64,000 nt of DNA from a virus: IMG/VR virus record IMGVR_UViG_3300028392_000034, positions 1-64,000 of that record; one strand, written 5' to 3'. The notes below the pieces were generated by a model. It had not been told where the DNA came from. It did no database searches and worked only from the letters and a program-made list of their open reading frames with translations. The position numbers and the translations under genes are program-made. Positions 4,187-39,803 of this stretch are shown piece after piece (position 1 is the stretch's first letter; each line of letters starts with the position of its first letter).

Positions 4187-5308
4187 ATGAGCAATTTCTT
4201 GTGTGCAGCTCCGTGGAGGGGTCTGCACATCAATCCACAAGGCAGTGTCAAAACCTGTTGTGCAGGTGATCCTAATATGTTGGGCAACTTAAACAGCCAA
4301 ACTATTGAGGAGATTCTACACGGCTCTGCACTGCAAGAAGTAAGACAAACCCTGCGTGAGGGACGCCCACATGAGCAGTATTGTCACAATTGTGTGCAGG
4401 CCGAACGCTATGGTCGTAGTGAACGTGACTGGCACAACAGAATAAATCCCGGCTTTGATGCTGGCCAAGCCTCAGATACAGAACACCATCCAGTGCTGAT
4501 TGACATACGCTGGAACACCACTTGCAATTTCAGTTGCAACTACTGCAACGAACACAGTAGTAGTCAATGGGCCAGTCTAAAACAATTGTCAGTTCAGTCC
4601 GGCACCAGACCCTATTCTGACCAAGTATGCAACTATCTCGAACAACATCAAGCACACATTAAGAAAGTGGCTCTAATTGGTGGTGAGCCGTTGTTGCTCA
4701 AAGAAAATGAACGACTACTAGATGCAATTCCTTTGGATTGTCAAGTTGACGTTATAACCAATCTTGGTGTAGACTTAGAAAGCAATCGGATATTTGCTAA
4801 GTTAGCACAACGACAACAGGTTGGGTGGAACATAAGCATTGACAATACGGGTGATAGATTTGAATATGTCAGGTATGGTGGTACATGGAGTCAAATTGAA
4901 CAAAATATCAAAATAATACAGGCCTGCTCAGGGCATAGATTAGGCATACATCCGCTTTACAACATTTACAATGCCACTAGACTATCTGAATTGATTTCTT
5001 GGGCACATGATCAAACAATACCCGTGCATTGGCAAAGCCTATATCATCCTGCTTGTTTAGATCCGCTACAACTGGGACCTGAGTTTAGGCAGTTGGCCTT
5101 AAAAGAATTACGAACAGTATTAAGTAGACCCGATTTGGATCACGGTCAACGCAACTTCCTACAAGAAACCGAAGCTCGACATCAGCTGGCCAACAACAAT
5201 ATGTTACCAGAATTTATAAATCACATTGCCGAAATTGAAAGTAAATATCATGCTGGTGCTGCAGGTCGCTTTGAACAACTGTGGCCTGAACTAGCAACTT
5301 TATTATGA
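4187..5308 (+). CDS. Radical SAM protein with N-terminal SPASM/twitch-like domain
   Basis: CNFSCNYC and GGEP; N-terminal CAAPW..G.VKTCC..CHNC. Start reassigned to ATG 4187; ATGA overlap with terminase. Confidence 0.85.
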   Translation: MSNFLCAAPWRGLHINPQGSVKTCCAGDPNMLGNLNSQTIEEILHGSALQEVRQTLREGRPHEQYCHNCVQAERYGRSERDWHNRINPGFDAGQASDTEHHPVLIDIRWNTTCNFSCNYCNEHSSSQWASLKQLSVQSGTRPYSDQVCNYLEQHQAHIKKVALIGGEPLLLKENERLLDAIPLDCQVDVITNLGVDLESNRIFAKLAQRQQVGWNISIDNTGDRFEYVRYGGTWSQIEQNIKIIQACSGHRLGIHPLYNIYNATRLSELISWAHDQTIPVHWQSLYHPACLDPLQLGPEFRQLALKELRTVLSRPDLDHGQRNFLQETEARHQLANNNMLPEFINHIAEIESKYHAGAAGRFEQLWPELATLL

Positions 5309-6870
5309 GCCAAACCGAATCTACTTTAGTTAAAACACCATACAAGAAAACAGCCTTTACTGATCAACAGTTAGAGGAGTTTGTAAAATGTGCTGATCCT
5401 GTAACAGGTCCGCAATATTTTCTTGATAACTTTTTTCATATACAGCATCCTACCAAAGGCAAGATGTTGTATCATCCGTTTGACTATCAAAAGCGACTGA
5501 TAGATACCTATCACAACTATCGCTTCAGCATCAGCATGATGCCGCGACAAACCGGTAAGAGTACCAGTGCCGCTGGCTATTTGTTATGGGTGGCCATGTT
5601 CCGTCCAGATTCAACTATTCTTATTGCCGCACACAAATACACTGGCTCACAAGAGATCATGCAACGTATTCGCTATGCCTACGAGCTGTGTCCAGATCAT
5701 ATCCGTGCCGGAGTTACTAGTTACAACAAAGGTAACTTGGACTTTGAAAACGGATCACGCATAGTTTCAACCACCACAACAGAAAATACCGGTCGTGGTA
5801 TGAGTATATCACTCTTATACTGTGACGAGTTCGCGTTTGTTCGCCCTGGCATTGCCAAAGAGTTCTGGACTTCTATTAGCCCTACACTGGCCACTGGTGG
5901 TAAGGCAATTATTACAAGCACTCCAAACAGTGACGAAGATCAGTTTGCCCTGTTGTGGAAAGGTGCTCTCAAGTGCGAAGATGAATTTGGTAACCCCACT
6001 GACGTTGGTATCAATGGATTTAAGAGTTATCGCAGTTATTGGAACGAACACCCAGACCGTGATGAAAAGTGGGCTAGCGAACAGCGAGCACAGTTAGGCG
6101 ATGATCGTTTCCGCCGTGAAATGGGGTGCGAATTTATTATCAACGATGAAACACTTATAGCACCAACTAAATTATTAGATTTGCAAGGGCATGAACCCTT
6201 GTATAAGACTGGGCAGGTTCGTTGGTATCAGCGCCCCAAGTCAGGCCGTACCTATGTAATTGGGCTTGACCCTAGTTTGGGCACTGGTGGTGATGCTGCT
6301 GCTATACAAATATTTGAAGCAGAAACTACAGAACAAGTGGCTGAGTGGCGTCACAATAGAACACCAATACCTGAGCAGGTTCGCATTTTAGCAGCTATTT
6401 GTGCTCACATCAATGAAACAGTTAAGGATCCACAAAAAATATACTACAGCATAGAAAACAATACCATTGGCGAAGCTGCATTGATCAGCATTGACGAATA
6501 TGGCGAGGAAAACATACAGGGCTATTTTCTAAGTGACCCGCACAATGGCGGAAATAAGAGATACCGCAAAGGATTCAACACCACAAACAAACCCAAGCTG
6601 GCCGCTTGTAACAAGTTAAAAACACTAATCGAATCAGGACGTATGAAGGTACGCAGTTCAAGCCTGGTCAGCGAACTCAAAACCTTTGTGGCTTCTGGTG
6701 CAGGCTATGCAGCCAAAATAGGAGAAACTGATGACTTGGTTATGAGCACAGTGCTGACGGTGCGTATGCTACAATTGCTACAAACCTACGATAACAGCAT
6801 TGATACTCAGCTGCGAGACCACGGAGATAACATAATCCCGCCGATGCCATTCATCAGCGTAAGGCGCTAA
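5305..6870 (+). CDS. Terminase large subunit (T4 gp17-like)
   Basis: PRQTGKS Walker A, LLYCDEFAF Walker B, ITSTPN coupling motif; nuclease domain GLDPS...TDDLVM. Confidence 0.95.
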   Translation: MSQTESTLVKTPYKKTAFTDQQLEEFVKCADPVTGPQYFLDNFFHIQHPTKGKMLYHPFDYQKRLIDTYHNYRFSISMMPRQTGKSTSAAGYLLWVAMFRPDSTILIAAHKYTGSQEIMQRIRYAYELCPDHIRAGVTSYNKGNLDFENGSRIVSTTTTENTGRGMSISLLYCDEFAFVRPGIAKEFWTSISPTLATGGKAIITSTPNSDEDQFALLWKGALKCEDEFGNPTDVGINGFKSYRSYWNEHPDRDEKWASEQRAQLGDDRFRREMGCEFIINDETLIAPTKLLDLQGHEPLYKTGQVRWYQRPKSGRTYVIGLDPSLGTGGDAAAIQIFEAETTEQVAEWRHNRTPIPEQVRILAAICAHINETVKDPQKIYYSIENNTIGEAALISIDEYGEENIQGYFLSDPHNGGNKRYRKGFNTTNKPKLAACNKLKTLIESGRMKVRSSSLVSELKTFVASGAGYAAKIGETDDLVMSTVLTVRMLQLLQTYDNSIDTQLRDHGDNIIPPMPFISVRR

Positions 6871-6873
6871 ATA
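6868..6873 (+). promoter_or_regulatory. T4-type late promoter core (TAAATA)
   Basis: TAAATA lies 8 nt before ATG 6881 with no SD; the motif recurs before many structural genes. Confidence 0.6.
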
Positions 6874-6880
6874 CACTACT

Positions 6881-10058: not shown

Positions 10059-11063
10059 ATGGCATCATTAGCAGACATCCGTGCGAGACTCGCACAATCA
10101 GAAGGTAACAAACAAGGCGGCAACTCCACCGGTGGCGATAATGCAATTTATCCACACTGGAACATGGAAGAAGGCGCAAGCGCAACACTCCGATTCCTCC
10201 CAGACGGCAACACCAAGAACACATTCTTTTGGCAAGAACGAGCAATGATTCGTTTGCCATTCAATGGCGTCAAAGGTGAAATGGAATCCAAACAAGTATA
10301 TGTGCAAGTCCCTTGCGTGGAAATGTGGCAAGAAACTTGTCCTGTGCTGACAGAAGTTCGCACTTGGTTCAAGGACAAGAGCCTTGAAGAAATGGGTCGT
10401 AAGTATTGGAAAAAACGCAGTTACATTTTCCAAGGCTTTGTTCGTGAGAATCCACTAGGCGACGACAAGACTCCAGAAAATCCAATCCGTAGATTCATTA
10501 TTGGTCCACAAATCTTTACCACTATCAAGGGTGCATTGATGGATCCTGAGTTGGAAGAATTGCCAACAGACTACCTGCGTGGATTAGACTTCCGCATCAG
10601 CAAAGGTAGCAAAGGCGGCTTTGCTGACTACAACGGATCAAAGTGGGCTCGCAAAGAGACAGCACTCACTGAAGCCGAACAAGCAGCCATTGAAAAGCAT
10701 GGCCTGTTTGACTTGAGCACATTTATGCCCAAGAAGCCCGGTGAAGTTGAACTCAAGGTAATCAAAGAAATGTTTGAAGCAAGTGTTGATGGACAGAGTT
10801 ACGACACAGAACGTTGGGGTCAGTATTTCCGTCCAGCTGGTGTTAATGCTCCAGCAGGCAGTGCTACACCAGCGCCAGCAACAGCCGTTGTTGATGGACA
10901 CGGTGATGTTCACGAAGTTGAAGCCAAGTCAGCACCCGCAACAGCGGCATCAAGTGATTTTGATGATGAGCCAGCAGTGGCCAGTGCTCCAGTAGTGGCC
11001 AAGCCATCTTCAGACAAAGCTCAAGACATCTTGGCAATGATTAGGGCCCGTCAAAAAGCGTAA
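10059..11063 (+). CDS. Single-stranded DNA-binding protein (T4 gp32-like)
   Basis: LRFLPDGN, VPCVEMW..CPV, YWKKRSYIFQGFV, GLDFRISK..GFADY..SKW; low-complexity acidic tail. Confidence 0.9.
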   Translation: MASLADIRARLAQSEGNKQGGNSTGGDNAIYPHWNMEEGASATLRFLPDGNTKNTFFWQERAMIRLPFNGVKGEMESKQVYVQVPCVEMWQETCPVLTEVRTWFKDKSLEEMGRKYWKKRSYIFQGFVRENPLGDDKTPENPIRRFIIGPQIFTTIKGALMDPELEELPTDYLRGLDFRISKGSKGGFADYNGSKWARKETALTEAEQAAIEKHGLFDLSTFMPKKPGEVELKVIKEMFEASVDGQSYDTERWGQYFRPAGVNAPAGSATPAPATAVVDGHGDVHEVEAKSAPATAASSDFDDEPAVASAPVVAKPSSDKAQDILAMIRARQKA

Positions 11064-11066
11064 CAA

Positions 11067-11726
11067 ATGCTATCGCATTTAGATCGCGTTTTGTTTCCAG
11101 ACCGCTGTGAGGTAATTGAAATCATACCCTCACAGCGGTATGTCTATGTTATTTTTAAAAATGGACATACTAGTTTCTTTACGCCACAAAAAAAGAACAA
11201 CTGGCCAATACGTATCAATCAACAGATTCGACGAATCAACACAATTGATGTAATCATACGAAATCCTCAAGATCGATTAATTTCAGGAATCAACACATTT
11301 ATACAACACACCGTGAGAGATAATCCTGCGCTTGATCCGGTTACAGTAGAATGGTTCGCATTGAATTACATATCGTTGAATCGCCATTATGCTTCACAGT
11401 TTGTGTGGTTATTAAATTTAGCAAGGTATTTGAATCCCAATACCACGTTGAACTTGTTGCCAATGGCGGCCATCGGAGAACTCACAGGAAGAGATTCAAA
11501 GCCCGAAGGTGTGCTTCCGGCTAACACAGAACTAATAAAACGAATCTCATCAGTGAAAAACAACAACATGTATCAGCGTATCGATGCAGTGATATTTGAT
11601 TGTATTGGACAGTCGTTGACTTGGCAACAGTTATTACAACGGATAAAAACCGCTGATCCTACAGCATACGAGTATGTGATTGAGTATGCACAACAGATTT
11701 TAAATCCAACCTATGTATTGTCCTAG
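11067..11726 (+). CDS. Sulfotransferase-like protein (Sulfotransfer_2-like)
   Basis: YVIFKNGHTSF (5'PSB-like), IIRNPQDRLISG (3'PB-like), NRHYASQ. Confidence 0.55.
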   Translation: MLSHLDRVLFPDRCEVIEIIPSQRYVYVIFKNGHTSFFTPQKKNNWPIRINQQIRRINTIDVIIRNPQDRLISGINTFIQHTVRDNPALDPVTVEWFALNYISLNRHYASQFVWLLNLARYLNPNTTLNLLPMAAIGELTGRDSKPEGVLPANTELIKRISSVKNNNMYQRIDAVIFDCIGQSLTWQQLLQRIKTADPTAYEYVIEYAQQILNPTYVLS

Positions 11727-12588
11727 ACTAGATCATTTTGTTCGTTTCAACAGCAACGGCACAGTTAGTCGCTGTGGACACATGGTCAACGCACCAGAAT
11801 TTGCCACGCTTGAAGCAATGGAATCCAGTGAGTGGCTGGTCAATACCAAACATTTGATGAGTAGTGGACAATGGCCTGACGAATGTATACGTTGTGAAGA
11901 AACTGAACCTGACAGCATACGAGCGTATGCAACAGAGTTAGACCATCAAACTGAACAGAAAGATTATTTACAAGTAGGTGGTGTGTTGGACAATCTGTGC
12001 AATGCCGCTTGCCAAACATGCAATCAAAATCTCAGCAGTAGAATCGGCAGCTTAGCCGGACCTGTATTTCCAATTATCAATAATACGGATCAATTCTGGC
12101 AATTGCCACAAGAACGAATTATGCATTTAGATATCAATGGCGGCGAGCCCAGTTATAGTAAAAACTATAAACGACTGTTGAAAAATTTGCCACCTAATTT
12201 AAAAACGCTCAGATTAAATACAAATTGTAGCACAGTATTAACTGAACTAGTTGATATAGCCCGCAGTGGCATCGAAGTTACAGTCACAGTAAGTTGTGAC
12301 GGCATCGGCACAGTGCATGACTTTGTGCGCTGGCCTATACCTTGGCAAGATTTTTATCGTAATTTAATGACCTATAAAACAATGCCAGTCACATTGAATT
12401 TGTGGACAACAGTCAGTGTGTTGAATGTAGATGACTTGCCCAACATTCAAAAATTTGCCTTAGAGCACAGCATTGATCACAGTTATGCTTACTTAAAAAC
12501 GCCCGTTGAGTTGAGTGTTGATAATACTGACATTCCTGCTAGAGATGCATATATAGCAAAACAAAAACAACTAAGAGGCATAGTATGA
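11713..12588 (+). CDS. Radical SAM protein with N-terminal twitch-like domain
   Basis: CNAACQTC and NGGEP; N-terminal CPRL..G.VSRC..CIRC. Confidence 0.85.
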   Translation: MYCPRLDHFVRFNSNGTVSRCGHMVNAPEFATLEAMESSEWLVNTKHLMSSGQWPDECIRCEETEPDSIRAYATELDHQTEQKDYLQVGGVLDNLCNAACQTCNQNLSSRIGSLAGPVFPIINNTDQFWQLPQERIMHLDINGGEPSYSKNYKRLLKNLPPNLKTLRLNTNCSTVLTELVDIARSGIEVTVTVSCDGIGTVHDFVRWPIPWQDFYRNLMTYKTMPVTLNLWTTVSVLNVDDLPNIQKFALEHSIDHSYAYLKTPVELSVDNTDIPARDAYIAKQKQLRGIV

Positions 12589-13124
12589 AAATAGCAATCA
12601 CTGGTCACACCGCCGGCATAGGTCAAGCTCTTGCTGAAGAATATCAACTCATGGGTTATGAAATTGTAGGTCTTAGTCAACGTGACGGCAACAATATTCG
12701 CAACACCGTTAAGATTTGTGATCAAATTGAACCGTGTGATGTTTTTGTTAACAACGCACAAGCCGGATATGCACAGACCGAGTTGTTGTTTGAAATGGCA
12801 CAACGCTGGTCGGGCACCGGCAAACAGATTATTGTGATCAGCACAATGATGACTCAAGAACCTGTGTCGTCGTTGACTGGACTAGACATGGATCATTATC
12901 GTTTGCAAAAAGTTACATTAGAAGAAGCTGTGCGTCAAATACGACATCGTCGACTCAAAGTAAAGATCGTAGTAGTTCGTCCTGGTAACATTGCCACAAA
13001 CTTGGATAAAACAGTGCCACCTGCCGCCGATGTCGATAACTGGGCTAAAACCTTATTGGGTCTATTAGATATGGCCGCAAAAAACAATCTTAGAATTCCA
13101 GATATTTCTTTAGGACCGGTATGA
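12585..13124 (+). CDS. Short-chain dehydrogenase/reductase
   Basis: ITGHTAGIG Rossmann motif, VNNA, catalytic YRLQK (YxxxK), RPG. Confidence 0.85.
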   Translation: MKIAITGHTAGIGQALAEEYQLMGYEIVGLSQRDGNNIRNTVKICDQIEPCDVFVNNAQAGYAQTELLFEMAQRWSGTGKQIIVISTMMTQEPVSSLTGLDMDHYRLQKVTLEEAVRQIRHRRLKVKIVVVRPGNIATNLDKTVPPAADVDNWAKTLLGLLDMAAKNNLRIPDISLGPV

Positions 13125-14275
13125 CCCCCAAAGATATATTAACCAACAAGAATTTTTGCCCAATGCCATGGACTGGGTTGATGTATAACGTTGATGGCAA
13201 AGTAAAAAATTGTATTCGCAGTGATTTTACAACCGGTGGTCTAGGCAATATCAAAGACAACACCATTGAAGAAATACTGTTAGGACCTGTCAATGTTACC
13301 AAACAAACTAATATAATCAATAACCAGCCGGCTGCTGGCTGTCATACTTGTTACGATTTAGAACATGGTAAAGAAGGTTTTGATATTATCAGTGATAGAA
13401 TTTTCTACATACGAGAATTCAAACAAACCCCATTGGATACTTATCGACCCAATAATTTTAATCTACAAACCATTGATGTTCGGTGGACCAATTTGTGTAA
13501 TCTTGCTTGTGTATATTGTGGCCCTGTGTTTAGTAGTCGTTGGGCAGACGAATTGGGTAAAAAAATATCACAACCAACCGAACAACAGCAACAGGATTTC
13601 AGAGACTACATTTATCAACACGCCAAGAATCTCAAACATGTATACCTAGCCGGTGGCGAACCCTTGTTGATGAAGGAAAATTTAAAACTACTTCGAGAAT
13701 TAAACCCAGACGTTAATCTTAGGATAAACACAAATCTTAGCAAGGTTGATACAGGAGTGTTTGATGCAGTATGCCAATTCAAAAATGTTCATTGGACAGT
13801 GAGTGCAGAAACCATAGAAGATGAATTTGAATACATACGATTCGGCGGTAAGTGGCAGGATTTTTTAGACAATCTAAACACAATTAGAAAACTTGACCAT
13901 AAGATAAGTTTCAACATGCTATGGTTTCTTTTAAATTATGACTCGGTATTTGGATATGTAGACTACCTTAAAGGTCTAGGATTCCATAATAATAGTTTTG
14001 TCATTGGTGCGTTACTCACTCCTGATTACCTAAATATTAGACATTTACCAGAAAATGTGTTAAACTCGTTAAAGTTAAAATTACAATCAAAGATCAACGA
14101 AAATCCAGGGTACCTACTTGAAGATAGTTATCGGAATATGTTGCATTACATTGAGCAACCAATTGAGAAGAATTTAACAAATTCATTTGAACAATTGGCA
14201 ACAATGGATCAACGGCGTGGAGTAGACAGCAGTAAAATTTTTACAGAATTATACAAACTTAAAGAAGGAAAGTAA
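13121..14275 (+). CDS. Radical SAM protein with N-terminal SPASM/twitch-like domain
   Basis: CNLACVYC and AGGEP; N-terminal CPMPW..G.VKNC..CHTC. Confidence 0.85.
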   Translation: MTPKDILTNKNFCPMPWTGLMYNVDGKVKNCIRSDFTTGGLGNIKDNTIEEILLGPVNVTKQTNIINNQPAAGCHTCYDLEHGKEGFDIISDRIFYIREFKQTPLDTYRPNNFNLQTIDVRWTNLCNLACVYCGPVFSSRWADELGKKISQPTEQQQQDFRDYIYQHAKNLKHVYLAGGEPLLMKENLKLLRELNPDVNLRINTNLSKVDTGVFDAVCQFKNVHWTVSAETIEDEFEYIRFGGKWQDFLDNLNTIRKLDHKISFNMLWFLLNYDSVFGYVDYLKGLGFHNNSFVIGALLTPDYLNIRHLPENVLNSLKLKLQSKINENPGYLLEDSYRNMLHYIEQPIEKNLTNSFEQLATMDQRRGVDSSKIFTELYKLKEGK

Positions 14276-14277: not shown

Positions 14278-15336
14278 ATGGCAAAACCATTTGATATAAG
14301 CAAGTTCCGCAAGGACATCACCAAAAGCATTGAAGGCCTAAGTATTGGTTTCAATGATCCAACTGATTGGATCTCAACAGGCAATTTTGCCTTGAACTAT
14401 CTTATCAGTGGAGACTTTAATCGAGGTATTCCACTGGGCAAGATTACAGTATTTGCCGGTGAGTCTGGTGCAGGAAAAAGCTATATTTGTTCAGGCAACA
14501 TTGTTAAGAACGCACAAGAGCAAGGTATCTTTGTCATCTTGGTTGATACAGAAAACGCACTAGACGAAACATGGCTACATGCGCTTGGTGTAGATACCGG
14601 TGCAGACAAGTTACTTAAATTAAACATGAGTATGATTGATGACGTTGCCAAGGCTATTTCAACATTCATGATTGATTACAAAGCTCTACCAGATGGTGAG
14701 CGCATGAAGGTATTATGGGTTATCGACTCATTGGGCATGTTGTTGACTCCAACTGATGTGAATCAATTTGAAGCCGGTGACATGAAAGGTGATATGGGTC
14801 GTAAGCCCAAAGCACTAACAAGTCTTGTTCGTAATTCAGTCAACATGTTTGGTGGCTTCAATGTTGGAATGGTTTGTACGAATCACACCTACGCAAGCCA
14901 GGATATGTTTGACCCAGATGATAAGATTTCAGGTGGCCAAGGCTTTATCTATGCATCAAGTATTGTTGTTGCTATGAAGAAAATGAAACTCAAAGAAGAT
15001 GAAGAAGGTAACAAAATCTCTGAAGTAATGGGTATCCGTGCTGGATGTAAGGTAATGAAAACTCGTTATGCTAAACCATTTGAAGGTATGCAGGTTAAGA
15101 TTCCGTATGAAACAGGCATGAACCCTTATAGTGGATTGACTGATCTAGCAGAGAAAAAAGGTATACTTAAGAAAGATGGCAATCGTTTGATGTTTGTTAC
15201 CAGCGAAGGTGAGATAATTAAACAGTTCCGTAAGGCTTGGGAATCCAACGAAGATGGTTGCTTGGACAAAGTAATGACAGATTTTAAAAATCAGAAAGAA
15301 ACAGTAACCACTGAAGAAACCGCAACGGAGGAATAA
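14278..15336 (+). CDS. uvsX: RecA-like recombinase UvsX
   Basis: GESGAGKS Walker A, DTENA, VIDSLG, TNHTY, SGG.GFIYASS, KTRYAKPF. Confidence 0.92.
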   Translation: MAKPFDISKFRKDITKSIEGLSIGFNDPTDWISTGNFALNYLISGDFNRGIPLGKITVFAGESGAGKSYICSGNIVKNAQEQGIFVILVDTENALDETWLHALGVDTGADKLLKLNMSMIDDVAKAISTFMIDYKALPDGERMKVLWVIDSLGMLLTPTDVNQFEAGDMKGDMGRKPKALTSLVRNSVNMFGGFNVGMVCTNHTYASQDMFDPDDKISGGQGFIYASSIVVAMKKMKLKEDEEGNKISEVMGIRAGCKVMKTRYAKPFEGMQVKIPYETGMNPYSGLTDLAEKKGILKKDGNRLMFVTSEGEIIKQFRKAWESNEDGCLDKVMTDFKNQKETVTTEETATEE

Positions 15337-15596: not shown

Positions 15597-16048
15597 TGTG
15601 GTATAGCAAAGTTGTAGCGGATCTAGGTAATATTCCAGATTTTATCACACATTACGAACACGAACTTGACGAAGCCAAACGCGACTGTCGAGTTGGTGGA
15701 CTTGTTGAAAAAAATATTACAGCTTTGCCAGGCCTTACAGAACATAGGTTTAACCAGTTGCAAGAAGTTGAAGCAGTGTTAAATTACCTCAATATACAAC
15801 TACGCAAAATACGACGCAAGCACTTTCAAAAATATCTTGAAGGGTACGCTCGAGCATTGACAAGTCGTGATGCTGAAAAGTATGTTGATGGCGAAGACGA
15901 AGTCATTGAATTTGAAACCTTAATCAACGAAGTTGCACTGTTACGTAATCGATACTTGGGCATTCTTAAAGGAATGGAAAGTAAGAACTTTATGCTGGGA
16001 CACATTGTGAGATTACGAGCCGCCGGTATGGAGGATGTTCAAGTATAA
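15596..16048 (+). CDS. uvsY: Recombination mediator, UvsY-like
   Basis: Helical 150-aa protein near uvsX with KYLEGY..LTSRDAEKYVDGE pattern. Confidence 0.65.
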   Translation: MWYSKVVADLGNIPDFITHYEHELDEAKRDCRVGGLVEKNITALPGLTEHRFNQLQEVEAVLNYLNIQLRKIRRKHFQKYLEGYARALTSRDAEKYVDGEDEVIEFETLINEVALLRNRYLGILKGMESKNFMLGHIVRLRAAGMEDVQV

Positions 16049-16794
16049 TGTTTGCACATCCTGGCGACAGCCATCAACACAGTCTTGAAACACTACGTCA
16101 GTTGTATGAGTATGATGATTTCATGCTGAGTATACGCAACATGATTGATCTTGGATGTGGCTCTGGTGACGATTTGGTATGGTGGGCGACCCGAACAACT
16201 CGCGACGATCCCCAGCCGCTGAACATCAAATGTCACGGCATTGATCTAGGTGGAAACTCATTGGTTGTTAACGAACATGAAAATATTACCTATCAACAGT
16301 GTAATTTTGAAGATACATTAACTGTTCCAGATGGTGGATTTGATATACTATGGTGCCACGATGCATTTCAGTATGCTGTTAACCCAATACAAACTCTCAG
16401 CAATTGGTGGCATATTGCCAGCCCAGGCGGTATGCTGTCACTGACTGTACCAGTGACTCAACAAATACATCGTCGACAACTTAGTTATGTGTTGCCCAAT
16501 GGACATTACTATCATTACACCATGGTCAGTCTCATGTATATGTTGGCCACAGCCGGATGGGATTGTGGTGCTGGGTTTTTTAAACAAACACTCACTGAGC
16601 CGTGGATACATGCGGTGGTTTATAAAAGTGCTCAACCTCCTCAAAACCCACGTGATATCAATTGGAACACATTGGTAGAGCTTAATCTTTTACCCCAGTC
16701 TGCTGTAAAAAGCATTTATGCTCACAGTGCTTTAAGACAACAAGATTTAGTTATTCCTTGGATTGACGGCAGTTTATTGAGCATGGCCGTTTAA
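16048..16794 (+). CDS. Class I SAM-dependent methyltransferase
   Basis: MIDLGCGSG motif I, FDILWCHD, SPGGML. Confidence 0.8.
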   Translation: MFAHPGDSHQHSLETLRQLYEYDDFMLSIRNMIDLGCGSGDDLVWWATRTTRDDPQPLNIKCHGIDLGGNSLVVNEHENITYQQCNFEDTLTVPDGGFDILWCHDAFQYAVNPIQTLSNWWHIASPGGMLSLTVPVTQQIHRRQLSYVLPNGHYYHYTMVSLMYMLATAGWDCGAGFFKQTLTEPWIHAVVYKSAQPPQNPRDINWNTLVELNLLPQSAVKSIYAHSALRQQDLVIPWIDGSLLSMAV

Positions 16795-16799: not shown

Positions 16800-16807
16800 T
16801 ATAAATA
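16800..16807 (+). promoter_or_regulatory. T4 late promoter TATAAATA
   Basis: Exact consensus; ATG follows 6 nt after the last base. Confidence 0.7.
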
Positions 16808-16812: not shown

Positions 16813-17574
16813 ATGAAAAAAATAGTAATAGTAAGCGGCGGATTTGATCCGGTACATTCGGGACACATTAAACTGATAAAGGAAGCCCGTTTATTGGGTG
16901 ATATGTTGATCGTAGGAATCAACAGTGACGAGTGGCTGACTCGCAAAAAAGGTCGCGCCTTTATGCCGTGGAACGAAAGACTGTGCGTATTAAACAACTT
17001 ATCTTCAGTAGATGAAGTATATACTTTTGACGACGAAGACGGAACTGCTTGTCATTTGCTACGTCAAGTTCGAGCACATTATCCTGATGATAAAATTATT
17101 TTTGCAAACGGTGGTGATCGCACACACTCAAATATTCCAGAAATGGACGCCGATGATGATAATTTAGCATTTGCATTTGGTGTTGGCGGAGTTGACAAAG
17201 CAAATAGTAGTAGTTGGATTTTGGAAGAATGGAAAGCACCTAAGGCACTACGCCCATGGGGCTATTACCGGGTATTACATGATGTACCTGGTACCAAAGT
17301 CAAAGAACTTACTGTTATGCCTGGCCAGCGTCTTAGTATGCAACGCCACCAAGATCGAGCCGAACATTGGCATGTTTCTGAAGGTACAGCCACAGTTTAC
17401 AGCATAAATAGAAAAAGCGATCCAGAGTTGGTGGGTATCTTTGAAATACACAAACATATACATATCAATTGTAACGAATGGCATCAGTTGTGCAATGAAA
17501 CTGACGCTCCGTTAAAAATTGTAGAAATACAATACGGTGACAATTGCGTTGAAGAAGATATCGAACGCCGATAA
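16813..17574 (+). CDS. Cytidylyl/adenylyltransferase (HIGH family) fused to a mannose-6-phosphate isomerase type II cupin
   Basis: SGGFDPVHSGH, NSDEWL.RKKG, FANGGDR, SSS; then RPWGYY, LSMQRH..RAEHW, EIQYG..EEDIER. Confidence 0.85.
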   Translation: MKKIVIVSGGFDPVHSGHIKLIKEARLLGDMLIVGINSDEWLTRKKGRAFMPWNERLCVLNNLSSVDEVYTFDDEDGTACHLLRQVRAHYPDDKIIFANGGDRTHSNIPEMDADDDNLAFAFGVGGVDKANSSSWILEEWKAPKALRPWGYYRVLHDVPGTKVKELTVMPGQRLSMQRHQDRAEHWHVSEGTATVYSINRKSDPELVGIFEIHKHIHINCNEWHQLCNETDAPLKIVEIQYGDNCVEEDIERR

Positions 17575-27394: not shown

Positions 27395-28357
27395 ATGATT
27401 GATGTGATTTCTTTTCTTCCGAATAAAAGAAAACAAACAGCTAGTGGTTGGATAAGTTTCAACGCACCCTGTTGTGTTCATCGCGGAGATACTCAAGACA
27501 AACGACAGCGTGGCGGCATCAAGCCCAACACAGATGGTGCATGGAGTTACCACTGTTTCAATTGTGGCTATACTGCAAGTTTTGTATTGGGTCGTAACCT
27601 AACATTTAAAGCTCGTCGATTACTTGAATGGCTAAATGTACCACAAGAAGAAATTGAGCGAATTAATCTTGAAAGTCTGAAGCATCGATCAATCCAAGGC
27701 TGGTTAGGCGAACGTCAAGCTATTATGCAACAACTGCAAACGATCTCGTTTGAAGATCGAGACTTGCCGGTAACTACACAACCACTTAACGATGCTGCTA
27801 TAGAATATTTGCAGAATAGGCGCATACCTTTAGACTATCCGTTCTTGTATAAAACAATGCCCAGACCCGGTGTGGTAATTCCGTTTACCTATGAAAATCA
27901 AGTGGTAGGACACACCACACGGTTCTTAGACAATCGTACACCTAGATATATTCAAGATATACAACCGGGCTATGTGTTTGGAACAGATTTGTTGCACGAT
28001 AACTGGACCTGTGTTATTGTGCTGGAAGGAGTGTTTGATGCACTTAGTATCAATGGCCTAGCGGTGTTACACGCAGAGATCAACGATGCACAGGCTAGAT
28101 TAATTCGCAGTCTAGGACGTGATATTATTGTTGTTCCGGATCAAGACGAAGCCGGTATGCGGTTAGTAGACCGTGCAGTAGAACTAGGATGGGCAGTTAG
28201 TATGCCCGATTGGCCTGTGGATGTAAAGGATGTAAACGATGCTGTGATTCGTTGGGGTAGATTGGCAACTTTGCTAACTATAATGCAGGCCCGAGAAACC
28301 AGTAAGATTAAAATAGAACTAAGGAAGAAACAACTTGTTAAAAGATTACGGACTTGA
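27395..28357 (+). CDS. DNA primase (T4 gp61-like)
   Basis: Zn-binding PCC..H...YHCFNC; TOPRIM EGVFDA, PDQDEAG, KDVND; leaderless promoter TATAAT 27383-27388. Confidence 0.9.
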   Translation: MIDVISFLPNKRKQTASGWISFNAPCCVHRGDTQDKRQRGGIKPNTDGAWSYHCFNCGYTASFVLGRNLTFKARRLLEWLNVPQEEIERINLESLKHRSIQGWLGERQAIMQQLQTISFEDRDLPVTTQPLNDAAIEYLQNRRIPLDYPFLYKTMPRPGVVIPFTYENQVVGHTTRFLDNRTPRYIQDIQPGYVFGTDLLHDNWTCVIVLEGVFDALSINGLAVLHAEINDAQARLIRSLGRDIIVVPDQDEAGMRLVDRAVELGWAVSMPDWPVDVKDVNDAVIRWGRLATLLTIMQARETSKIKIELRKKQLVKRLRT

Positions 28358-29777
28358 CGTCCAACGCTTATTCTTAGAAATGATGTTGCAGGACGCAGAA
28401 AGTTATGTTCGCGTTCAAAACATTTACAACCCAGAAAACTTTGACCGCAGTCTCAGGCCAGCAGCTGAGTTTATTGCCAAACACAGTGACCAACACAAGA
28501 CACTGCCCACAACGGAACAGATCAGTGCCAGCACCGGCGTTAAACTTAACAACATTCCTGATTTAAATGAAGGACATTTTGAATGGTTCATGGATGAGTT
28601 TGAAGGCTTTACTCGCAGACAAGAATTGGAACGAGCAATTTTAAAGAGTGCAGATTTGTTGGAAAAGGGCGAGTATGACCCTGTAGAGAAATTAATCAAA
28701 GATGCGGTACAGATATCACTTACTAAAGACATGGGCACGGATTACTTCAGTGATCCTAGTGCTCGTATTAACCGATACTTCAACTCAGGCGGGCAAGTAA
28801 GCACTGGCTGGCCACAGATGGACAAAATCTTGTATGGTGGATTTAGTCGCGGAGAACTAAATATTTTTGCTGGTGGATCTGGATCTGGTAAAAGTTTGGT
28901 CATGATGAACATAGCCCTGAGTTGGTTACAAGCCGGACTCAGTGGTGTGTATATCAGTTTAGAACTGAGCGAAGAATTGTGTGCATTAAGAACTGATGCC
29001 ATGCTGGCTGGAATGAGCACAAAAGAAATTCGCAAAGATATTGACCAGGCAACTCTTAAAGTCAAATTGATTTCAAAGAAAACCGGTCAATATCGTATTA
29101 AGGCATTGCCAGCACAAAGCAACATCAATGACATTCGTAGTTACATCAAAGAAGTTCAAGTGCAAACAGGAATCAAGATTGACTTTGTCATGTGTGATTA
29201 CTTGGACTTGTTAATGCCAGTCAGTGCCAAGGTCAGTCCAAACGATTTGTTTGTCAAAGACAAGTATGTTTCAGAAGAATTGCGTAACTTGGCCAAAGAA
29301 CTCAATGTGTTGTTTGTAACAGCATCGCAGTTGAATCGTAGTGCAGTGGAAGAGATTGAATTTGACCACAGTCACATTTCGGGTGGTATTTCAAAGATCA
29401 ATACTGCAGATAACGTGTTTGGTATCTTTACAAGTCGTGCTATGCGTGAACGTGGCAAGTATCAAATACAATGTATGAAATCGCGTAGTAGTACCGGTGT
29501 TGGTATGAAAATTGACTTGGATTATAACATTGAAACTATGCGTATCACTGATCCGGGCGAAGATGCAGGACCGGTTAATTCGTTTGCTAAAGGTAATCTA
29601 TTAGATAGTATCAAAGCCAAGAGCCAAGTCAAGTCTGCTGACTCCGGTAACGAAAGCACATCACCAAAGTGGGAACGTCCCACAGGAACTCCAGCTTGGG
29701 AACAAGAACCCAAGATAACTGCTGATGTGCAAAGTGCCAAACTAAAACAATTACTAGGACAGATTAAACAGTCATGA
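28335..29777 (+). CDS. Replicative DNA helicase (gp41/DnaB-like)
   Basis: GGSGSGKS, SLEL, DYLDL, TASQLNR, KSRSS; TTG start with AAGGA upstream. Confidence 0.92.
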   Translation: MLKDYGLDVQRLFLEMMLQDAESYVRVQNIYNPENFDRSLRPAAEFIAKHSDQHKTLPTTEQISASTGVKLNNIPDLNEGHFEWFMDEFEGFTRRQELERAILKSADLLEKGEYDPVEKLIKDAVQISLTKDMGTDYFSDPSARINRYFNSGGQVSTGWPQMDKILYGGFSRGELNIFAGGSGSGKSLVMMNIALSWLQAGLSGVYISLELSEELCALRTDAMLAGMSTKEIRKDIDQATLKVKLISKKTGQYRIKALPAQSNINDIRSYIKEVQVQTGIKIDFVMCDYLDLLMPVSAKVSPNDLFVKDKYVSEELRNLAKELNVLFVTASQLNRSAVEEIEFDHSHISGGISKINTADNVFGIFTSRAMRERGKYQIQCMKSRSSTGVGMKIDLDYNIETMRITDPGEDAGPVNSFAKGNLLDSIKAKSQVKSADSGNESTSPKWERPTGTPAWEQEPKITADVQSAKLKQLLGQIKQS

Positions 29778-30778
29778 TAGCCTATCAAGATATACAAGAT
29801 GTTCATCTTGAAATTTCTAGTTTATGTAATGCTAGTTGCCCGTTGTGTCCTAGGACGTTTTGGGGATATTCGTTCAACGCTGGATACCCAGAAACTAACT
29901 TAACATTAACACACGCTAAACAAATCTTTACTGAAGATTTTTTAACACAGTTGACCAGTATTCGAATCAATGGTAATTTTGGGGATATTGTAATGAATCC
30001 CGAAGGACCTGATATTGTTGAATATTTTATTAGTATTAATCCCAATTTAAAAATTACTATCAGCACCAATGGCGGAGCAAGAGATCAAACGTTCTGGACC
30101 AGGCTGGCAAAAAGCAGAGTCACAGTTTATTTTTGTTTAGACGGATTAGAAGATACCCATCACCTGTATAGGCAAAATACAGTATGGGCCACAGTTATAC
30201 GTAATGCACAAACATTTATAGCCGCCGGTGGTGATGCCATTTGGAAAATGATACCATTTGATCATAATCGTCACCAAATTGAGCAGTGCCGCGCACTTAG
30301 TAAAGAGCTTGGCTTTACACAATTTTTACTATCACCTGATAGTGGGCGTGACACCGGCCCGGTTTTTAATAATCACGGTGAACTCACACATGTAATAGGC
30401 AATTATACCGGAGAGAAAGATTTTGAAATATTATACCACGAGAAAAAAGCATATAAAATTCTACTAGAAGATATTCTTCCTGGGCGTATTCCTGCAAAAT
30501 CTTTAAATTGTGAGACTAAAAGACTAAAGAGTATCTACATTGCTGCTAACGGAGATGTAAGTCCTTGTTGTTATCTTGGGTTTTATCCAAAAACATATGG
30601 CGCTCATCGGTTTCATGAAGCCGCTAATGCTCAATTAATTCCATTGATTGCAAAAAATAATGCGTTAGAATACCCATTAGAAGAATGTATTGAGTGGTTT
30701 AAATCTGTCAAAAACGCCTGGGAAATTGATAATTATGAACAAGGGCGATTAGTAATTTGCGATGAGTCATGTGGATAA
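29774..30778 (+). CDS. Radical SAM protein with C-terminal SPASM/twitch domain
   Basis: CNASCPLC; STNG; C-terminal C..IYIAANGDVSPCC...CDESC; ATGA-coupled to helicase. Confidence 0.85.
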   Translation: MIAYQDIQDVHLEISSLCNASCPLCPRTFWGYSFNAGYPETNLTLTHAKQIFTEDFLTQLTSIRINGNFGDIVMNPEGPDIVEYFISINPNLKITISTNGGARDQTFWTRLAKSRVTVYFCLDGLEDTHHLYRQNTVWATVIRNAQTFIAAGGDAIWKMIPFDHNRHQIEQCRALSKELGFTQFLLSPDSGRDTGPVFNNHGELTHVIGNYTGEKDFEILYHEKKAYKILLEDILPGRIPAKSLNCETKRLKSIYIAANGDVSPCCYLGFYPKTYGAHRFHEAANAQLIPLIAKNNALEYPLEECIEWFKSVKNAWEIDNYEQGRLVICDESCG

Positions 30779-34717: not shown

Positions 34718-34739
34718 TTAAGTTTTTGCATAAAACATC

Positions 34740-35090: not shown

Positions 35091-35093
35091 TTG

Positions 35094-35117: not shown

Positions 35118-35163
35118 GTTGACTTTAATATGGGTCTTGCAACAACGACTTAAATACTAGATC

Positions 35164-35843: not shown

Positions 35844-35855
35844 TGGAGATTAATC

Positions 35856-36610: not shown

Positions 36611-37751
36611 GGTTTTTGAAAGCTATTTTGGCAACCGTGTTGATTTCAACACAGTATCAAAAGGCCAAGCACGAAACATGCTCAAGCGTGTGCGTGGCTT
36701 AATTGCTGAACATCGTCGCACTCCAGAATTTCACTACAGTGAGCGAAATCCATCATACTTGAAATTGGTCATGATGGAACAGGCTCTGGCCGCGGCCGCA
36801 ACTACTCCAGGCGCCGCTCCTGCTGCAAATCCTCAGGCACAAGCTGGAATGCAAGCCGCACAGATCCAGCAAAAGAAAAAGCAAATTCAAGATGCTATCA
36901 AAGCCAAGCAAGGCGAGATTGCTCAATTGCAAAAGCAAATGAATGATCCAACCATGATGGCCATGGCCGAAGCTCAACTTGATGAACTAAGTCCGGCAAC
37001 ATTGACTAGTTATGCCGGTAAGAGAGCAGGTCAAGGAACATGGGCAGGTGGTGTTGCTAAAGGATTAGCAGGACGTCCTGCTGAAAGAGATGGTTACGCA
37101 GATAGTCATTGGACTGACCCTAAAGTAAATTACGGCCCTGAAGGTGAAAAATATGCCAAGTTCAATCAAAAGGCTTTGGGCAATATAAAGAAAGCACATG
37201 CTAAAGGTGCAACTCCTAACAATCAATCTTACGATTGGGGAAAAGAAGGTGGCTACGGTGATGCAAGTAATCCTGTAACTAGAAAAAAGGGCGTAGCAGA
37301 AGGCAGTCGTGCTCGTCGTTTGCGTGAAGCCAGTGAAATTCAACAAGCTCAAGTTGTGTTGGCAAGCCAAGACATGGTAGACCAAGTTCAAAAGATGAGT
37401 GAGCAAGTGTCTGCTATGCAGTTTAAAGATTTGCCAGCCCTGTTGGATCAAATTAGAAATGAAGTCGGGGTCGATCAAGCTACACAATACAATGCTGATG
37501 CCAGTGCTGCATTGAGTGGCCTATTAGGAAACTTGCAAGGTGCTAAACAACAGTTGGAAGCCGCACTGGGTGTAATCACTGGACAAGCACCACAAGTTCC
37601 TGGTGCCGAAATAGGTGCCGCTCCAGACATGGGTGCTGACATGGGTGCTGAACTTCCTGCCCCGGGCGAAGAAGTTGCAGACTTAGATGCCGCTGGTGCA
37701 GACTTGGATGCTGCCGCACAAGCAGCCGGTTTAGGCCGTGAACGCAGATAA
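36561..37751 (+). CDS. Putative prohead core/scaffold-type protein with an inserted module
   Basis: Late promoter; MKLQEL N-terminus; coiled coils; LDE|LSPATLTSY...GVAE|G module; ends GRERR. Confidence 0.55.
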   Translation: MKLQELAVANPIQQAAKVFESYFGNRVDFNTVSKGQARNMLKRVRGLIAEHRRTPEFHYSERNPSYLKLVMMEQALAAAATTPGAAPAANPQAQAGMQAAQIQQKKKQIQDAIKAKQGEIAQLQKQMNDPTMMAMAEAQLDELSPATLTSYAGKRAGQGTWAGGVAKGLAGRPAERDGYADSHWTDPKVNYGPEGEKYAKFNQKALGNIKKAHAKGATPNNQSYDWGKEGGYGDASNPVTRKKGVAEGSRARRLREASEIQQAQVVLASQDMVDQVQKMSEQVSAMQFKDLPALLDQIRNEVGVDQATQYNADASAALSGLLGNLQGAKQQLEAALGVITGQAPQVPGAEIGAAPDMGADMGAELPAPGEEVADLDAAGADLDAAAQAAGLGRERR

Positions 37752-38086
37752 TGTTAATTCGAGAAGTTGCAGATCCCAACACACAACGACTGGCTGCATT
37801 AAGCCAGTTTTTGCTTGGACGGAGTGAAGATGAAGCCGCCGCAAAACAAATTAGTCAACAGGCTTTTATCGACGCTGCAAAAAGTTTAGGTGTTAATGTT
37901 ACTTCGGCCAACCTAGGCGATTTGATTAGTAAAGAACCTTTAAGCAATATATTAGAACCGCTTGAACCCAATTCGGGTGTGGTTCGTTTCAAAGGCAATA
38001 CCGAAGCCGAAACCGGTATGAGCGTGGACCAAGCTCGAGCCGTGGTAGACAGCAATGCCAAAGCGGCATTAAAACGTCGCCAGTAA
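37751..38086 (+). CDS. Hypothetical, probably a head protein
   Basis: MLIREV N-terminus; coupled to the upstream gene. Confidence 0.6.
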   Translation: MLIREVADPNTQRLAALSQFLLGRSEDEAAAKQISQQAFIDAAKSLGVNVTSANLGDLISKEPLSNILEPLEPNSGVVRFKGNTEAETGMSVDQARAVVDSNAKAALKRRQ

Positions 38087-38141
38087 ACACATTAGTCGTA
38101 AATATCTAACATCATCTGATTATTAGATGATGCACTATACT

Positions 38142-39044
38142 ATGAAAAAACACTTATTCTCCAAACTCGAGTTCTATATAACCAACGTTTGTAATTTGAC
38201 CTGCGAAGGTTGTAATCGATTCAACAACTACTCATTTGCTGGTTGGCAACGATGGAGTGACTACGAAGCCGACTATGCCAAATGGGCCGAACATGTAGAT
38301 GTTGATCGGATTGTAATACTAGGTGGAGAACCCCTGCTTAATCCAGATATACTTGATTGGGTATATGGAATCAATCGTATCTTTAAGAGAAATGTGCAGA
38401 TTTTGTCAAACGGCACACGTCTAAACAATGTAAAAGGACTTTACGAAGCACTACAGGCCAATGGCAACTGGATGGGTATCAGCTGGCACAATCCCAACAC
38501 CATTGATGAGTTTGAAACAGAGGTTTACAAGTTCCTTAAAGGTAATATTACAAAAATAGAAAAAAATGATCCTCGCAACGAATATGGTGCCGACGTAGCA
38601 TGGGTAGATGAAAATAAAGTTGTTATTCCTTTGTGGATACAATATGATTTTTATGACAGTGCAATTGGTCGTGATGCTACTGGTCGATTTACACTACACA
38701 ATAGTAGACCCGAAGTAGCACACAACAGTTGTGGATTTAGGCGCCATAAAAATTATCATATGATCAAAGGTAAACTGTATAAATGTGGCCCAGCTGCATT
38801 ATTTCCAGAGTTTGATCAACAACACGGATTTGATATTTCGGACGCGGATCGAGCCGTATTAAATTCTTACCGGCCATTATCTCCTTATGAGTATGCAGAA
38901 CGCGGACAAGAGTTTTTGGACACGATTGATGAGCAATTGACCATGTGTAAATTCTGCCCAGAAAGTCTGGACTATAAAAATAGATTATTTGCAGTTACCA
39001 AAAATCAAGCTCGAAAACAATACACCCTAGAACCAGTCGTATAA
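38142..39044 (+). CDS. Radical SAM protein with a C-terminal Cys cluster
   Basis: CNLTCEGC, LGGEP, SNG; C-terminal SC...KLYKC...MCKFC. Start could be 38127. Confidence 0.85.
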   Translation: MKKHLFSKLEFYITNVCNLTCEGCNRFNNYSFAGWQRWSDYEADYAKWAEHVDVDRIVILGGEPLLNPDILDWVYGINRIFKRNVQILSNGTRLNNVKGLYEALQANGNWMGISWHNPNTIDEFETEVYKFLKGNITKIEKNDPRNEYGADVAWVDENKVVIPLWIQYDFYDSAIGRDATGRFTLHNSRPEVAHNSCGFRRHKNYHMIKGKLYKCGPAALFPEFDQQHGFDISDADRAVLNSYRPLSPYEYAERGQEFLDTIDEQLTMCKFCPESLDYKNRLFAVTKNQARKQYTLEPVV

Positions 39045-39058
39045 TCCGTTCAAAAAGG

Positions 39059-39087
39059 TTGTAAATACAACAGTTACATGTTATAAT
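39059..39087 (+). promoter_or_regulatory. Dual promoter upstream of iscU
   Basis: TTGTAA-17-TATAAT with extended -10; TAAATA at 39062-39067. Confidence 0.65.
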
Positions 39088-39105
39088 ATAAAACAGGAGA
39101 AGTAA

Positions 39106-39483
39106 ATGGCATATTCAGAAAAAGTAATTGATCACTACGAAAATCCACGTAATGTAGGGTCGTTTGACAAAAGTGACGACTCGATTGGAACCGGTATGGT
39201 TGGAGCTCCTGCATGTGGCGACGTCATGAAACTTCAAATCAAAGTAAATACTGAAGGAGTAATAACTGATGCCAAATTTAAAACGTACGGGTGCGGATCA
39301 GCAATCGCCAGCTCAAGTCTTGTCACCGAGTGGGTTAAAGGAAAAACGCTTGACCAAGCAGGAACGATTAAAAATTCGGATATTGCTGGAGAACTTGCCT
39401 TACCACCGGTTAAAATACATTGTAGCATACTTGCAGAAGATGCTATAAAAGCCGCAATCGAAGACTACCGTAAAAAACACTGA
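39106..39483 (+). CDS. iscU: Fe-S cluster scaffold IscU
   Basis: YSEKVIDHYENPRNVG, APACGD, GCGSAIASSS, LPPVKIHCS. Confidence 0.97.
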   Translation: MAYSEKVIDHYENPRNVGSFDKSDDSIGTGMVGAPACGDVMKLQIKVNTEGVITDAKFKTYGCGSAIASSSLVTEWVKGKTLDQAGTIKNSDIAGELALPPVKIHCSILAEDAIKAAIEDYRKKH

Positions 39484-39803
39484 TGATTTCAGTTACTGAC
39501 GTCGCCTCTAAAAAAATTGTATCTAACTTGACTCGACGTGGCCAAGGGGTAGGTATTCGACTTGGTGTTCGTACCACTGGTTGCTCAGGGCTTGCTTATG
39601 TATTAGAATATGTTGATACCATTAATGCAGAAGACATTGCAGTTGAACAAGATGGCTTTGTTGTAGTGATTGATCCTAAGAGTTCAGCATACTTAAATGG
39701 AGTCGAAGTAGACTATGTGCGCCAGGGTCTTAACGAAGGCTTTGAATTTAACAATCCTCTTGAACGAGACCGTTGTGGATGTGGAGAAAGTTTTAGGATT
39801 TGA
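39483..39803 (+). CDS. iscA: Fe-S assembly A-type carrier IscA
   Basis: GCSGLAY, C-terminal CGCGESF. Confidence 0.95.
   Translation: MISVTDVASKKIVSNLTRRGQGVGIRLGVRTTGCSGLAYVLEYVDTINAEDIAVEQDGFVVVIDPKSSAYLNGVEVDYVRQGLNEGFEFNNPLERDRCGCGESFRI

Follow-up and report, generated by a model that had tools for sequence, protein, structure and literature searches.

Why would a phage intersperse genes for radical S-adenosylmethionine (rSAM) enzymes among its core replication and packaging genes, and carry iron-sulfur (Fe-S) assembly genes alongside them? The question is raised by the IMG/VR virus sequence IMGVR_UViG_3300028392_000034, a record of 148,970 bases whose bases 1–64000 form the window, the whole 64,000-nucleotide stretch of DNA under study; features further along are given in record coordinates. 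A first-pass annotation of this window had proposed a single undescribed modification system served by several rSAM enzymes. We find that at least nine rSAM genes occupy the intervals between core genes of this phage; they belong to about four groups and sit in separate modules, and the proposal of one system does not hold up against this number of groups, whose conservation and presence or absence differ among relatives. Taken as a whole, the explanation that we favor combines separate rSAM modules, a sugar-tailoring cassette and an Isc-type supply of clusters for phage enzymes, and we give this combination an even chance of being correct.

All five CxxxCxxC enzymes initially reported in the window proved to be real rSAM genes (here rSAM A to E), each carrying the motif CNxxCxxC, for which the chance expectation is 0.045 in the window proteome (20,712 residues, 1.29% Cys). 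The Pfam Radical_SAM threshold (PF04055) is passed by A, C and E, while rSAM B is picked up by the NCBIfam model NF033640, not by Pfam Radical_SAM, and rSAM D scores 22.6 bits against the Pfam cut-off of 29.5 and matches PHROG 21308 (1.3e-19). Their placement inside core operons was also described correctly: A overlaps the gene for the terminase large subunit (TerL), gp32 and UvsX enclose B and C, D overlaps the helicase gene, and E is located near iscU. The total of five, correct for the window, understated the inventory: rSAM genes number nine on the full record, where a second A-type carrier is also encoded. The four rSAM genes beyond the window are rSAM F (record 76536–77780), directly after ClpP (record 75940–76536) and beside a GT4 glycosyltransferase; rSAM G (record 81673–82794, minus strand); rSAM H (record 123792–124928), directly after an RFC-like clamp loader; and rSAM I (record 125213–126121), a paralogue of rSAM D. 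All-against-all BLAST of the nine genes yielded one set comprising A, B, C and F (21–33% identity), a D–I pair (25%), a loose G–H pair, and E alone. The nine genes, scattered over >120 kb of the record, thus make up about four unrelated or anciently diverged groups. Ratios of nonsynonymous to synonymous substitution (dN/dS) of 0.08–0.16 across the rSAM, reductase and Isc genes indicate purifying selection. The earlier description of the enzymes as uncharacterised and dispersed among core genes is supported, as is the need for multiple [4Fe-4S] clusters: most of the enzymes should require two or more, the second-cluster ligands being predicted from Cys conservation and homology to BtrN.

The most conserved rSAM gene, rSAM C, belongs to a cassette of four genes, all on the plus strand, that is flanked upstream by a gp32-type single-stranded DNA-binding protein (10059..11063; PHROG 1192, 5.7e-66) and downstream by the UvsX recombinase (14278..15336; PHROG 97, 1.1e-65; RecA_N in a relative). 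The first cassette gene is the open reading frame (ORF) ORF219 (11067..11726), followed by rSAM B (11713..12588, 291 amino acids), a compact short-chain dehydrogenase/reductase (SDR; 12585..13124, 179 amino acids) and rSAM C (13121..14275), the four being joined via overlapping stop and start codons within the gp32–UvsX operon. The SDR scores 27.2 bits for Pfam adh_short (cut-off 26.6) and 25.6 bits for Epimerase, and carries the motifs TGHTAGIG (TGxxxGIG), NNAQ and YRLQK (YxxxK). Across 80 related loci, the basis for all presence counts of the cassette and its flanks, ORF219 is found in 62, rSAM B in 79, the SDR in 76 and rSAM C in all 80. Mean identities, given as ranges where two coverage thresholds differ, are 61–62% for ORF219, 70–73% for B, 79% for the SDR and 83–84% for C, compared to 83% and 89% for the flanking gp32 and UvsX; dN/dS is 0.10 for B, 0.09 for the SDR and 0.08 for C. 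The cassette is a translationally coupled module, syntenic in 76–80 of the 80 loci, and across the lineage its conservation is about on a par with that of gp32.

This lineage is a freshwater one. The record is 43% complete according to CheckV, which implies a full genome of ~340 kb, and the source is a freshwater jumbo phage of the T4 superfamily. Its TerL is nearest, among jumbo isolates, to those of PA5oct (a Pseudomonas phage, 53.6%), Phosso, Atu_ph07, fHe-Yen9-04 and GAP32. No isolate phage comes near it in DNA sequence, two 10–12 kb stretches compared with isolates by megablast having returned no match, and a tblastn search of isolates with rSAM C returned just four weak matches (23–33% identity). 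IMG/VR contains 284 relatives of rSAM C at 70–92% identity, with the lineage very abundant among lake metagenomes; public data hold thousands of proteins homologous to rSAM C, and some of these homologues are carried on contigs of 340–345 kb.

What kind of enzyme the cassette encodes is indicated in part by domain order. Four conserved Cys precede the core in each of rSAM A, B and C, which confirms that three of the window's enzymes carry a Cys-rich domain ahead of the core. Pfam SPASM covers residues 28–91 of A and 13–77 of C, with Radical_SAM coming after (133–269 in A). The candidate cluster ligands of rSAM C (C13, C31, C74 and C77) vary little or not at all among 58 homologues, and in rSAM B Cys 3, 21, 58 and 61 are followed by C96/C100/C103 and GGEP. 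In rSAM D and E the domains follow the standard arrangement: the core leads and the additional Cys are C-terminal. The reversed order is not new: it defines a curated NCBIfam family, NF033640 (N_Twi_rSAM, “twitch domain-containing radical SAM protein”), whose cut-off of 170 bits is passed by A (220.9), C (250.1) and F (263.1). rSAM B, at 126.1 bits over model positions 12–334 of 398, falls below this cut-off and is a shortened relative; PHROG 14086 is the matching phage family for these N-terminal-twitch enzymes. The domain permutation is real, as the 58-homologue profile aligns through its residues 5–81 with BtrN's C-terminal twitch domain (E 2.5e-8). A literature search found no assayed N-terminal-twitch rSAM enzyme or NF033640 member, so family membership gives no function.

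Structural modeling was similarly neutral as to substrate. An AlphaFold2 model of rSAM C (pLDDT 96.2) has as its nearest structures BlsE (Z 12.0), SkfB (11.5), PFL-activase (11.5), MoaA (11.4) and anSME (11.2), with AprD4 at Z 7.8. Foldseek and VIA searches with this model left sugar, nucleotide, peptide and activase enzymes tied, and because these nearest structures are tied generic rSAM cores, the fold does not reveal the substrate. R93, D119, R121, R201, R240 and R366 are invariant within the family, and so many invariant Arg and Asp residues suit an anionic small substrate.

The genes around the cassette are more suggestive. Within 3 kb after it lie an S-adenosylmethionine-dependent methyltransferase (16048..16794, plus strand; Methyltransf_31/11/12), present in 45 of the 80 loci and also in the 340-kb relative L169, and a 253-residue fusion protein that joins a cytidylyltransferase-like domain to a mannose-6-phosphate isomerase-type cupin (16813..17574, plus strand; PF01467 6.2e-14, PF01050 4.4e-23). 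A T4-late-type promoter-like box, TATAAATA, is located at 16800, 13 nucleotides upstream of the start of the fusion gene. In L169, GT25 and GT8 glycosyltransferases stand beside the fusion homologue, together with further methyltransferases; in an NCBI assembly (L171, GCA_027401895.1) an NTP_transferase gene, for a sugar-phosphate nucleotidyltransferase, heads ~10 consecutive rSAM genes, B12-binding types included; and in L173 an epimerase/GDP-mannose dehydratase gene is found near a homologue. ORF219 has no Pfam, NCBIfam or PDB sequence match, but its motifs FKNGHTS and RNPQDRLIS resemble the two motifs (5′-PSB and 3′-PB) with which sulfotransferases bind 3′-phosphoadenosine 5′-phosphosulfate (PAPS), and carbohydrate sulfotransferases top both fold lists for its low-confidence AlphaFold2 model, though without reaching significance (Foldseek E 0.22; VIA Z 3.6). 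We treat ORF219 as a weak sulfotransferase-like candidate, a lead only. From the SDR, the methyltransferase, the cytidylyltransferase-cupin fusion, the glycosyltransferases of relatives and beside rSAM F, the nucleotidyltransferase and dehydratase genes near homologues elsewhere and the ORF219 motifs, we infer a sugar-type tailoring route, and sugar tailoring is our best guess for what the cassette does. This assignment is favored by the homology of the twitch domain to that of the sugar dehydrogenase BtrN and by the top Z score, to the nucleoside-sugar decarboxylase BlsE, although that score is tied with others.

In the route that we propose, the cassette would tailor a sugar-like or other small phosphorylated metabolite. 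Radical hydrogen abstraction might oxidise, dehydrate or epimerise a hydroxyl-bearing carbon, as in BtrN, DesII and AprD4; the SDR would then reduce the product, with group transfer possibly the next step. The methyltransferase and the cytidylyltransferase-cupin fusion could feed the cassette or finish its product, which would enter a glycan on the virion or host envelope, and rSAM A, D and E would be swappable accessory enzymes. A more ambitious version, in which the cassette performs new radical sugar or nucleotide-sugar chemistry to make a sulfated or deoxygenated sugar for the virion or host surface, with IscU and IscA as a dedicated maturation line, strikes us as rather unlikely.

Several observations weigh against a sugar role. 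No substrate is known for NF033640 or for the families of D, E, G and H, and the structural neighbours tie (Z 11–12). The sulfotransferase reading of ORF219 draws on two short motifs and on fold scores short of significance, obtained with a poor model (pLDDT 66.6). The window cassette contains no glycosyltransferase, and a GT2 search of the fragment was negative. Furthermore, of 14 cellular loci found with a 12-sequence alignment, the clearest full-length relatives are from Bdellovibrionota, where homologues are arranged in arrays of four to six rSAM paralogues and their immediate neighbours are further rSAM genes, not sugar genes; in the small number of bacterial loci covered, a placement of relatives mostly within glycan clusters received partial support. 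Another of the 14 loci, with a homologue 46% identical to rSAM C, lies on a 42-kb contig labeled ‘MAG: Legionellales bacterium’ (a metagenome-assembled genome; PBLX01000007.1, L183); its ORF order and sizes match the TerL–gp32–SDR–rSAM C–UvsX region of the phage, so it is probably a phage contig misbinned into a bacterial genome.

Most SPASM/twitch enzymes act as protein or peptide maturases, and the phage enzymes could do likewise, acting on virion proteins or small phage peptides to give thioether, cyclophane, epimer or formylglycine-type modifications. The tied best neighbours by structure or sequence include SkfB, anSME and CteB, and rSAM A shares a late operon with the terminase, adjoining head genes. 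The NCBIfam secondary matches of A, C and H (20–42 bits) are mostly maturases of peptides that are made on the ribosome and modified after translation (RiPPs; FxsB, WgkB, YhhB and GG_samocin), but they cover the generic rSAM core only and lie far under the family cut-offs. No RiPP recognition element (RRE) family appears among the Pfam and NCBIfam matches, and the small ORFs by D, E and H (30812–31060, 37751–38086 and record 124925–125206) are Cys-free and not precursor-like, as judged by a cursory check rather than a systematic precursor search. The coupling of the B/C cassette to an SDR, near a methyltransferase and a nucleotidyltransferase, and the fit of the family's invariant Arg/Asp residues to an anionic small substrate argue further against maturation, which we consider improbable.

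We assign a comparably small probability to modification of DNA or nucleotide precursors (hypermodified bases, deazapurines), which would explain why rSAM genes are found beside gp32/UvsX, the helicase, the clamp loader (H), dCMP deaminase and ribonucleotide reductase. The nucleotide-substrate enzymes MoaA, viperin and QueE are among the tied structural neighbours, and GTP cyclohydrolase I and PTPS genes lie near the homologue in L173. Position is nonetheless a weak clue, as accessory genes of any function are commonly wedged between the core genes of T4-like genomes. Moreover, a ThyA-family dCMP/dUMP hydroxymethylase, ThyX and TGT/DpdA were not found on the 149-kb fragment, which at ~43% of the genome makes their absence inconclusive.

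Outside the cassette, the rSAM genes behave differently. rSAM A (4187..5308, plus strand; alternative GTG start at 4121) is an N-terminal-twitch enzyme whose stop overlaps the start (5305/5308) of the TerL gene (5305..6870, plus strand; PHROG 36964, 2.3e-116). In relatives, the slot before TerL always holds an N-terminal-twitch rSAM gene, at 31–90% identity versus 83–96% for TerL. rSAM D (29774..30778, plus strand), with its core first and a C-terminal SPASM-like Cys set (Pfam SPASM 20.8 bits, just below the cut-off), starts within the end (29774/29777) of the gene for a DnaB/gp41-type replicative helicase (28335..29777, plus strand; PHROG 19, 1.1e-72). It adjoins the helicase in 69 loci, with a median gap of 8 nucleotides; its identity reaches at most 74%, even with the helicase at 97%, and other close relatives leave the position behind the helicase empty or fill it differently. 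The A and D slots thus hold fast-diverging or replaced alleles. Decay of A and D was considered and rejected, as their frames are intact and dN/dS for D is 0.16. Sequence searches of the PDB with D and E returned nothing useful.

These patterns bear on whether all five, or all nine, rSAM enzymes act sequentially in one dispersed modification pathway, which we regard as highly improbable. The genes belong to unrelated groups spread over more than 120 kb, and their differing conservation and presence or absence in close relatives is not the behaviour expected of obligatory partners. Since T4-like phages typically place accessory genes between core genes, dispersal is no evidence for a distributed pathway. 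Contiguous arrays elsewhere do leave room for paralogues that share a substrate: 15 rSAM genes are packed into 36 kb of IMGVR_UViG_3300017917_001151 (G013, 36–72 kb) and eight into 17 kb of G019, in addition to the ~10 in L171 and the arrays of four to six in Bdellovibrionota.

The second part of the question concerns the Fe-S assembly genes, which lie next to rSAM E (38127..39044, plus strand; a start at 38142 is also possible). This enzyme scores 46.7 bits for Pfam Radical_SAM, has its core first and four C-terminal Cys (202, 220, 274 and 277), falls in virus-only clusters of the ESM Atlas, and ends 61 nucleotides before iscU. Among 80 IscU-bearing loci, on which all counts for the isc locus are based, E adjoins iscU in 8, exclusively in the nearest relatives; the usual arrangement is a 111-residue ORF, iscU, iscA and a PD-(D/E)XK nuclease. 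The Fe-S scaffold IscU (39106..39483, plus strand; TIGR01999 224.9 bits, cut-off 192.4) keeps C37, D39, C63, H105, C106 and LPPVK, with a dN/dS of 0.12. It is followed by an A-type carrier (39483..39803, plus strand) with C34, C98 and C100 that passes TIGR00049 (108.3 bits, cut-off 58.8) and falls below the IscA equivalog TIGR02011 (144.4 versus 150.6 bits), for which reason we file it as an A-type carrier of the IscA type. The second A-type carrier (record 111557–111898; PF01521 71 bits) has C40, C104 and C106, and several related contigs likewise have two. IscU and both A-type carriers are intact and under purifying selection, in agreement with the initial report of IscU and IscA. The CDGSH-like protein reported with them is absent: the 149-kb record yielded no PF09360 match at E ≤ 1, and C[DN]G[SAT]H occurs in no frame. 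The neighbouring gene (39800..40246, plus strand; PF00383 2.4e-23) encodes a dCMP deaminase-type enzyme and adjoins IscA in 6 of the 80 loci.

Searches of the fragment for IscS (cysteine desulfurase) and a Fer2 ferredoxin were negative, which means that the host must supply sulfur and electrons; an HscBA-type partner was not found on the fragment either, and a MetK search of it was negative. We propose that IscU and the carriers would speed the assembly of [4Fe-4S] clusters and their delivery to multi-cluster, oxygen-sensitive phage enzymes, with cysteine desulfurase, an HscBA-type partner and ferredoxin coming from the host. Both subunits, large and small, of a class I ribonucleotide reductase are also encoded in the window, with a glutaredoxin-like gene after them (43018–46683), and the host appears from this to be aerobic; in such a host, extra assembly capacity would plausibly help fragile multi-cluster enzymes.

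If phage enzymes create the demand for clusters, rSAM load should be linked to the presence of assembly genes. We compared Pfam Radical_SAM counts in 20 IscU-positive records with those in seven complete jumbo isolate relatives that lack IscU and IscA. The former have 1–15 hits (median 4.1 per 100 kb) and the latter 0–4 (median 0.28 per 100 kb), a ~15-fold difference in density (Mann-Whitney p ~1e-4; p 0.0016 for contigs of at least 140 kb only). Within 2 kb of iscU, the density of ORFs with the rSAM motif is also roughly double that farther away, most of these nearby ORFs being E orthologues. Of 17 insertions between iscU and iscA, four are rSAM genes (L089 5072–6058, L164, L109 and L114), and the inserted gene looks D-like in L089 (a 32% tblastn match) and in L164 (by the N-terminal motif only).

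Against this link stand a number of observations. The association is confounded by ancestry, by habitat (aquatic metagenomic contigs versus cultured isolates) and by short contigs centred on iscU. The copy number of A-type carriers does not track rSAM density (rho −0.08). Some IscU-positive contigs of 160–246 kb have only 3–4 rSAM genes, and others have as few as one in 84 kb (G009), three in 238 kb (G012) or one in 156 kb (phage C48C1), while Atu_ph07 and Phosso each have four rSAM genes without IscU or IscA. Ultimately, of the initial claim that Fe-S demand lies behind iscU and iscA, the link itself stands as plausible, in view of the higher density in IscU-positive contigs, although the covariation is loose and the idea had a precedent. 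It is plausible that viral Fe-S assembly genes are linked to viral rSAM load, and the data, which come from gene counts, fit the demand idea without proving it.

The same data might instead be explained if IscU and IscA were general auxiliary metabolic genes that, while infection proceeds in iron-poor oxic water, sustain host Fe-S proteins of respiration and of nucleotide and cofactor synthesis, with the co-occurrence of rSAM genes a coincidence of lineage. Relatives of IscU are found in >585 viral contigs and are nearly absent from isolate phages (17 records, few of them convincing). The IscU–IscA pair, a conserved unit in 69 of the 80 loci, is far more widespread than its adjacency to E (8 of 80); the rSAM-poor IscU-positive contigs and the carrier copy number point the same way, and earlier virome literature treats isc genes as general auxiliary metabolic genes (PMC5332604). 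The ~15-fold higher rSAM density and the recurrence of rSAM genes as insertions in the isc locus speak for a supply to phage enzymes. We consider the auxiliary-gene explanation a real possibility, though a doubtful one.

Other genes of the window and record complete the picture. The gene directly upstream of rSAM A and the terminase encodes a non-specific DNA/RNA endonuclease (Endonuclease_NS, 3324–4148; 5.3e-42). ClpX with a zinc-finger domain is encoded at 59680–60879, in the same phage that encodes ClpP. A 525-residue pectate-lyase-like beta-helix protein (40990–42567; PF12708, 1.5e-17) may be a tail-fibre depolymerase against host polysaccharide.

As a discovery these results add little, since the enzyme family is catalogued and the pairing of rSAM with Isc genes was published in 2017. 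Their interest lies in what the lineage retains, an NF033640 enzyme about as conserved as gp32, a core replication gene. Finding the substrate of NF033640 would give an annotation to thousands of genes in phages and Bdellovibrionota and could reveal new radical chemistry; likewise, if phage IscU and IscA do mature phage enzymes, the common label of auxiliary metabolic gene would become a defined mechanism.

The closest precedent is the study of Nishimura et al. 2017 (mSphere, PMC5332604), who described 16 marine viral genomes with genes for IscU or A-type carriers, among them a 183-kb T4-like genome with 12 rSAM genes, listed ClpP among Fe-S-related viral genes, and concluded that Fe-S proteins encoded by the virus, and not just those of the host, are served by the viral assembly proteins. 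The supply idea of the first-pass annotation was therefore already proposed there. The present phage shares with those genomes T4-like ancestry, IscU and/or an A-type carrier, many rSAM genes and ClpP; theirs are marine and smaller, whereas this is a freshwater jumbo lineage of ~340 kb with its TerL nearest PA5oct, Atu_ph07 and GAP32, and the conserved gp32–UvsX cassette is not described in that study. Compared with bacterial ISC systems (IscS, IscU, IscA, HscBA and Fdx), the phage IscU and IscA are near full-length with all ligands and LPPVK, and of the system's components the fragment encodes the scaffold and carriers only.

Among enzymes, A, C and F share with NF033640 the four-Cys domain ahead of a CxxxCxxC core and GGEP, with B truncated and below the cut-off. 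BtrN, a twitch rSAM 2-deoxy-scyllo-inosamine dehydrogenase, has a homologous auxiliary-cluster domain in permuted order, the twitch domain coming first in the phage enzymes. AprD4/AprD3 is an rSAM enzyme coupled to an NAD(P)-type reductase, and the phage cassette likewise couples rSAM enzymes to such a reductase, its SDR. Identity is only 14–16% and there is no aminoglycoside context, so that these likenesses serve as a working analogy and not as membership. With anSME, CteB, SuiB and SkfB, the phage enzymes share a common rSAM core and auxiliary Cys clusters (Z 10.5–11.5); unlike anSME and the RiPP SPASM maturases, A, B and C lack the full seven-Cys SPASM motif, and neither an RRE domain, among the Pfam and NCBIfam matches, nor a precursor peptide, in the cursory check of small ORFs by D, E and H, was seen. 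Set against these known systems, the locus is a further case of a published pattern, built around a catalogued but functionally unassigned enzyme family, and the conserved gp32–UvsX cassette is the part most worth experiment.

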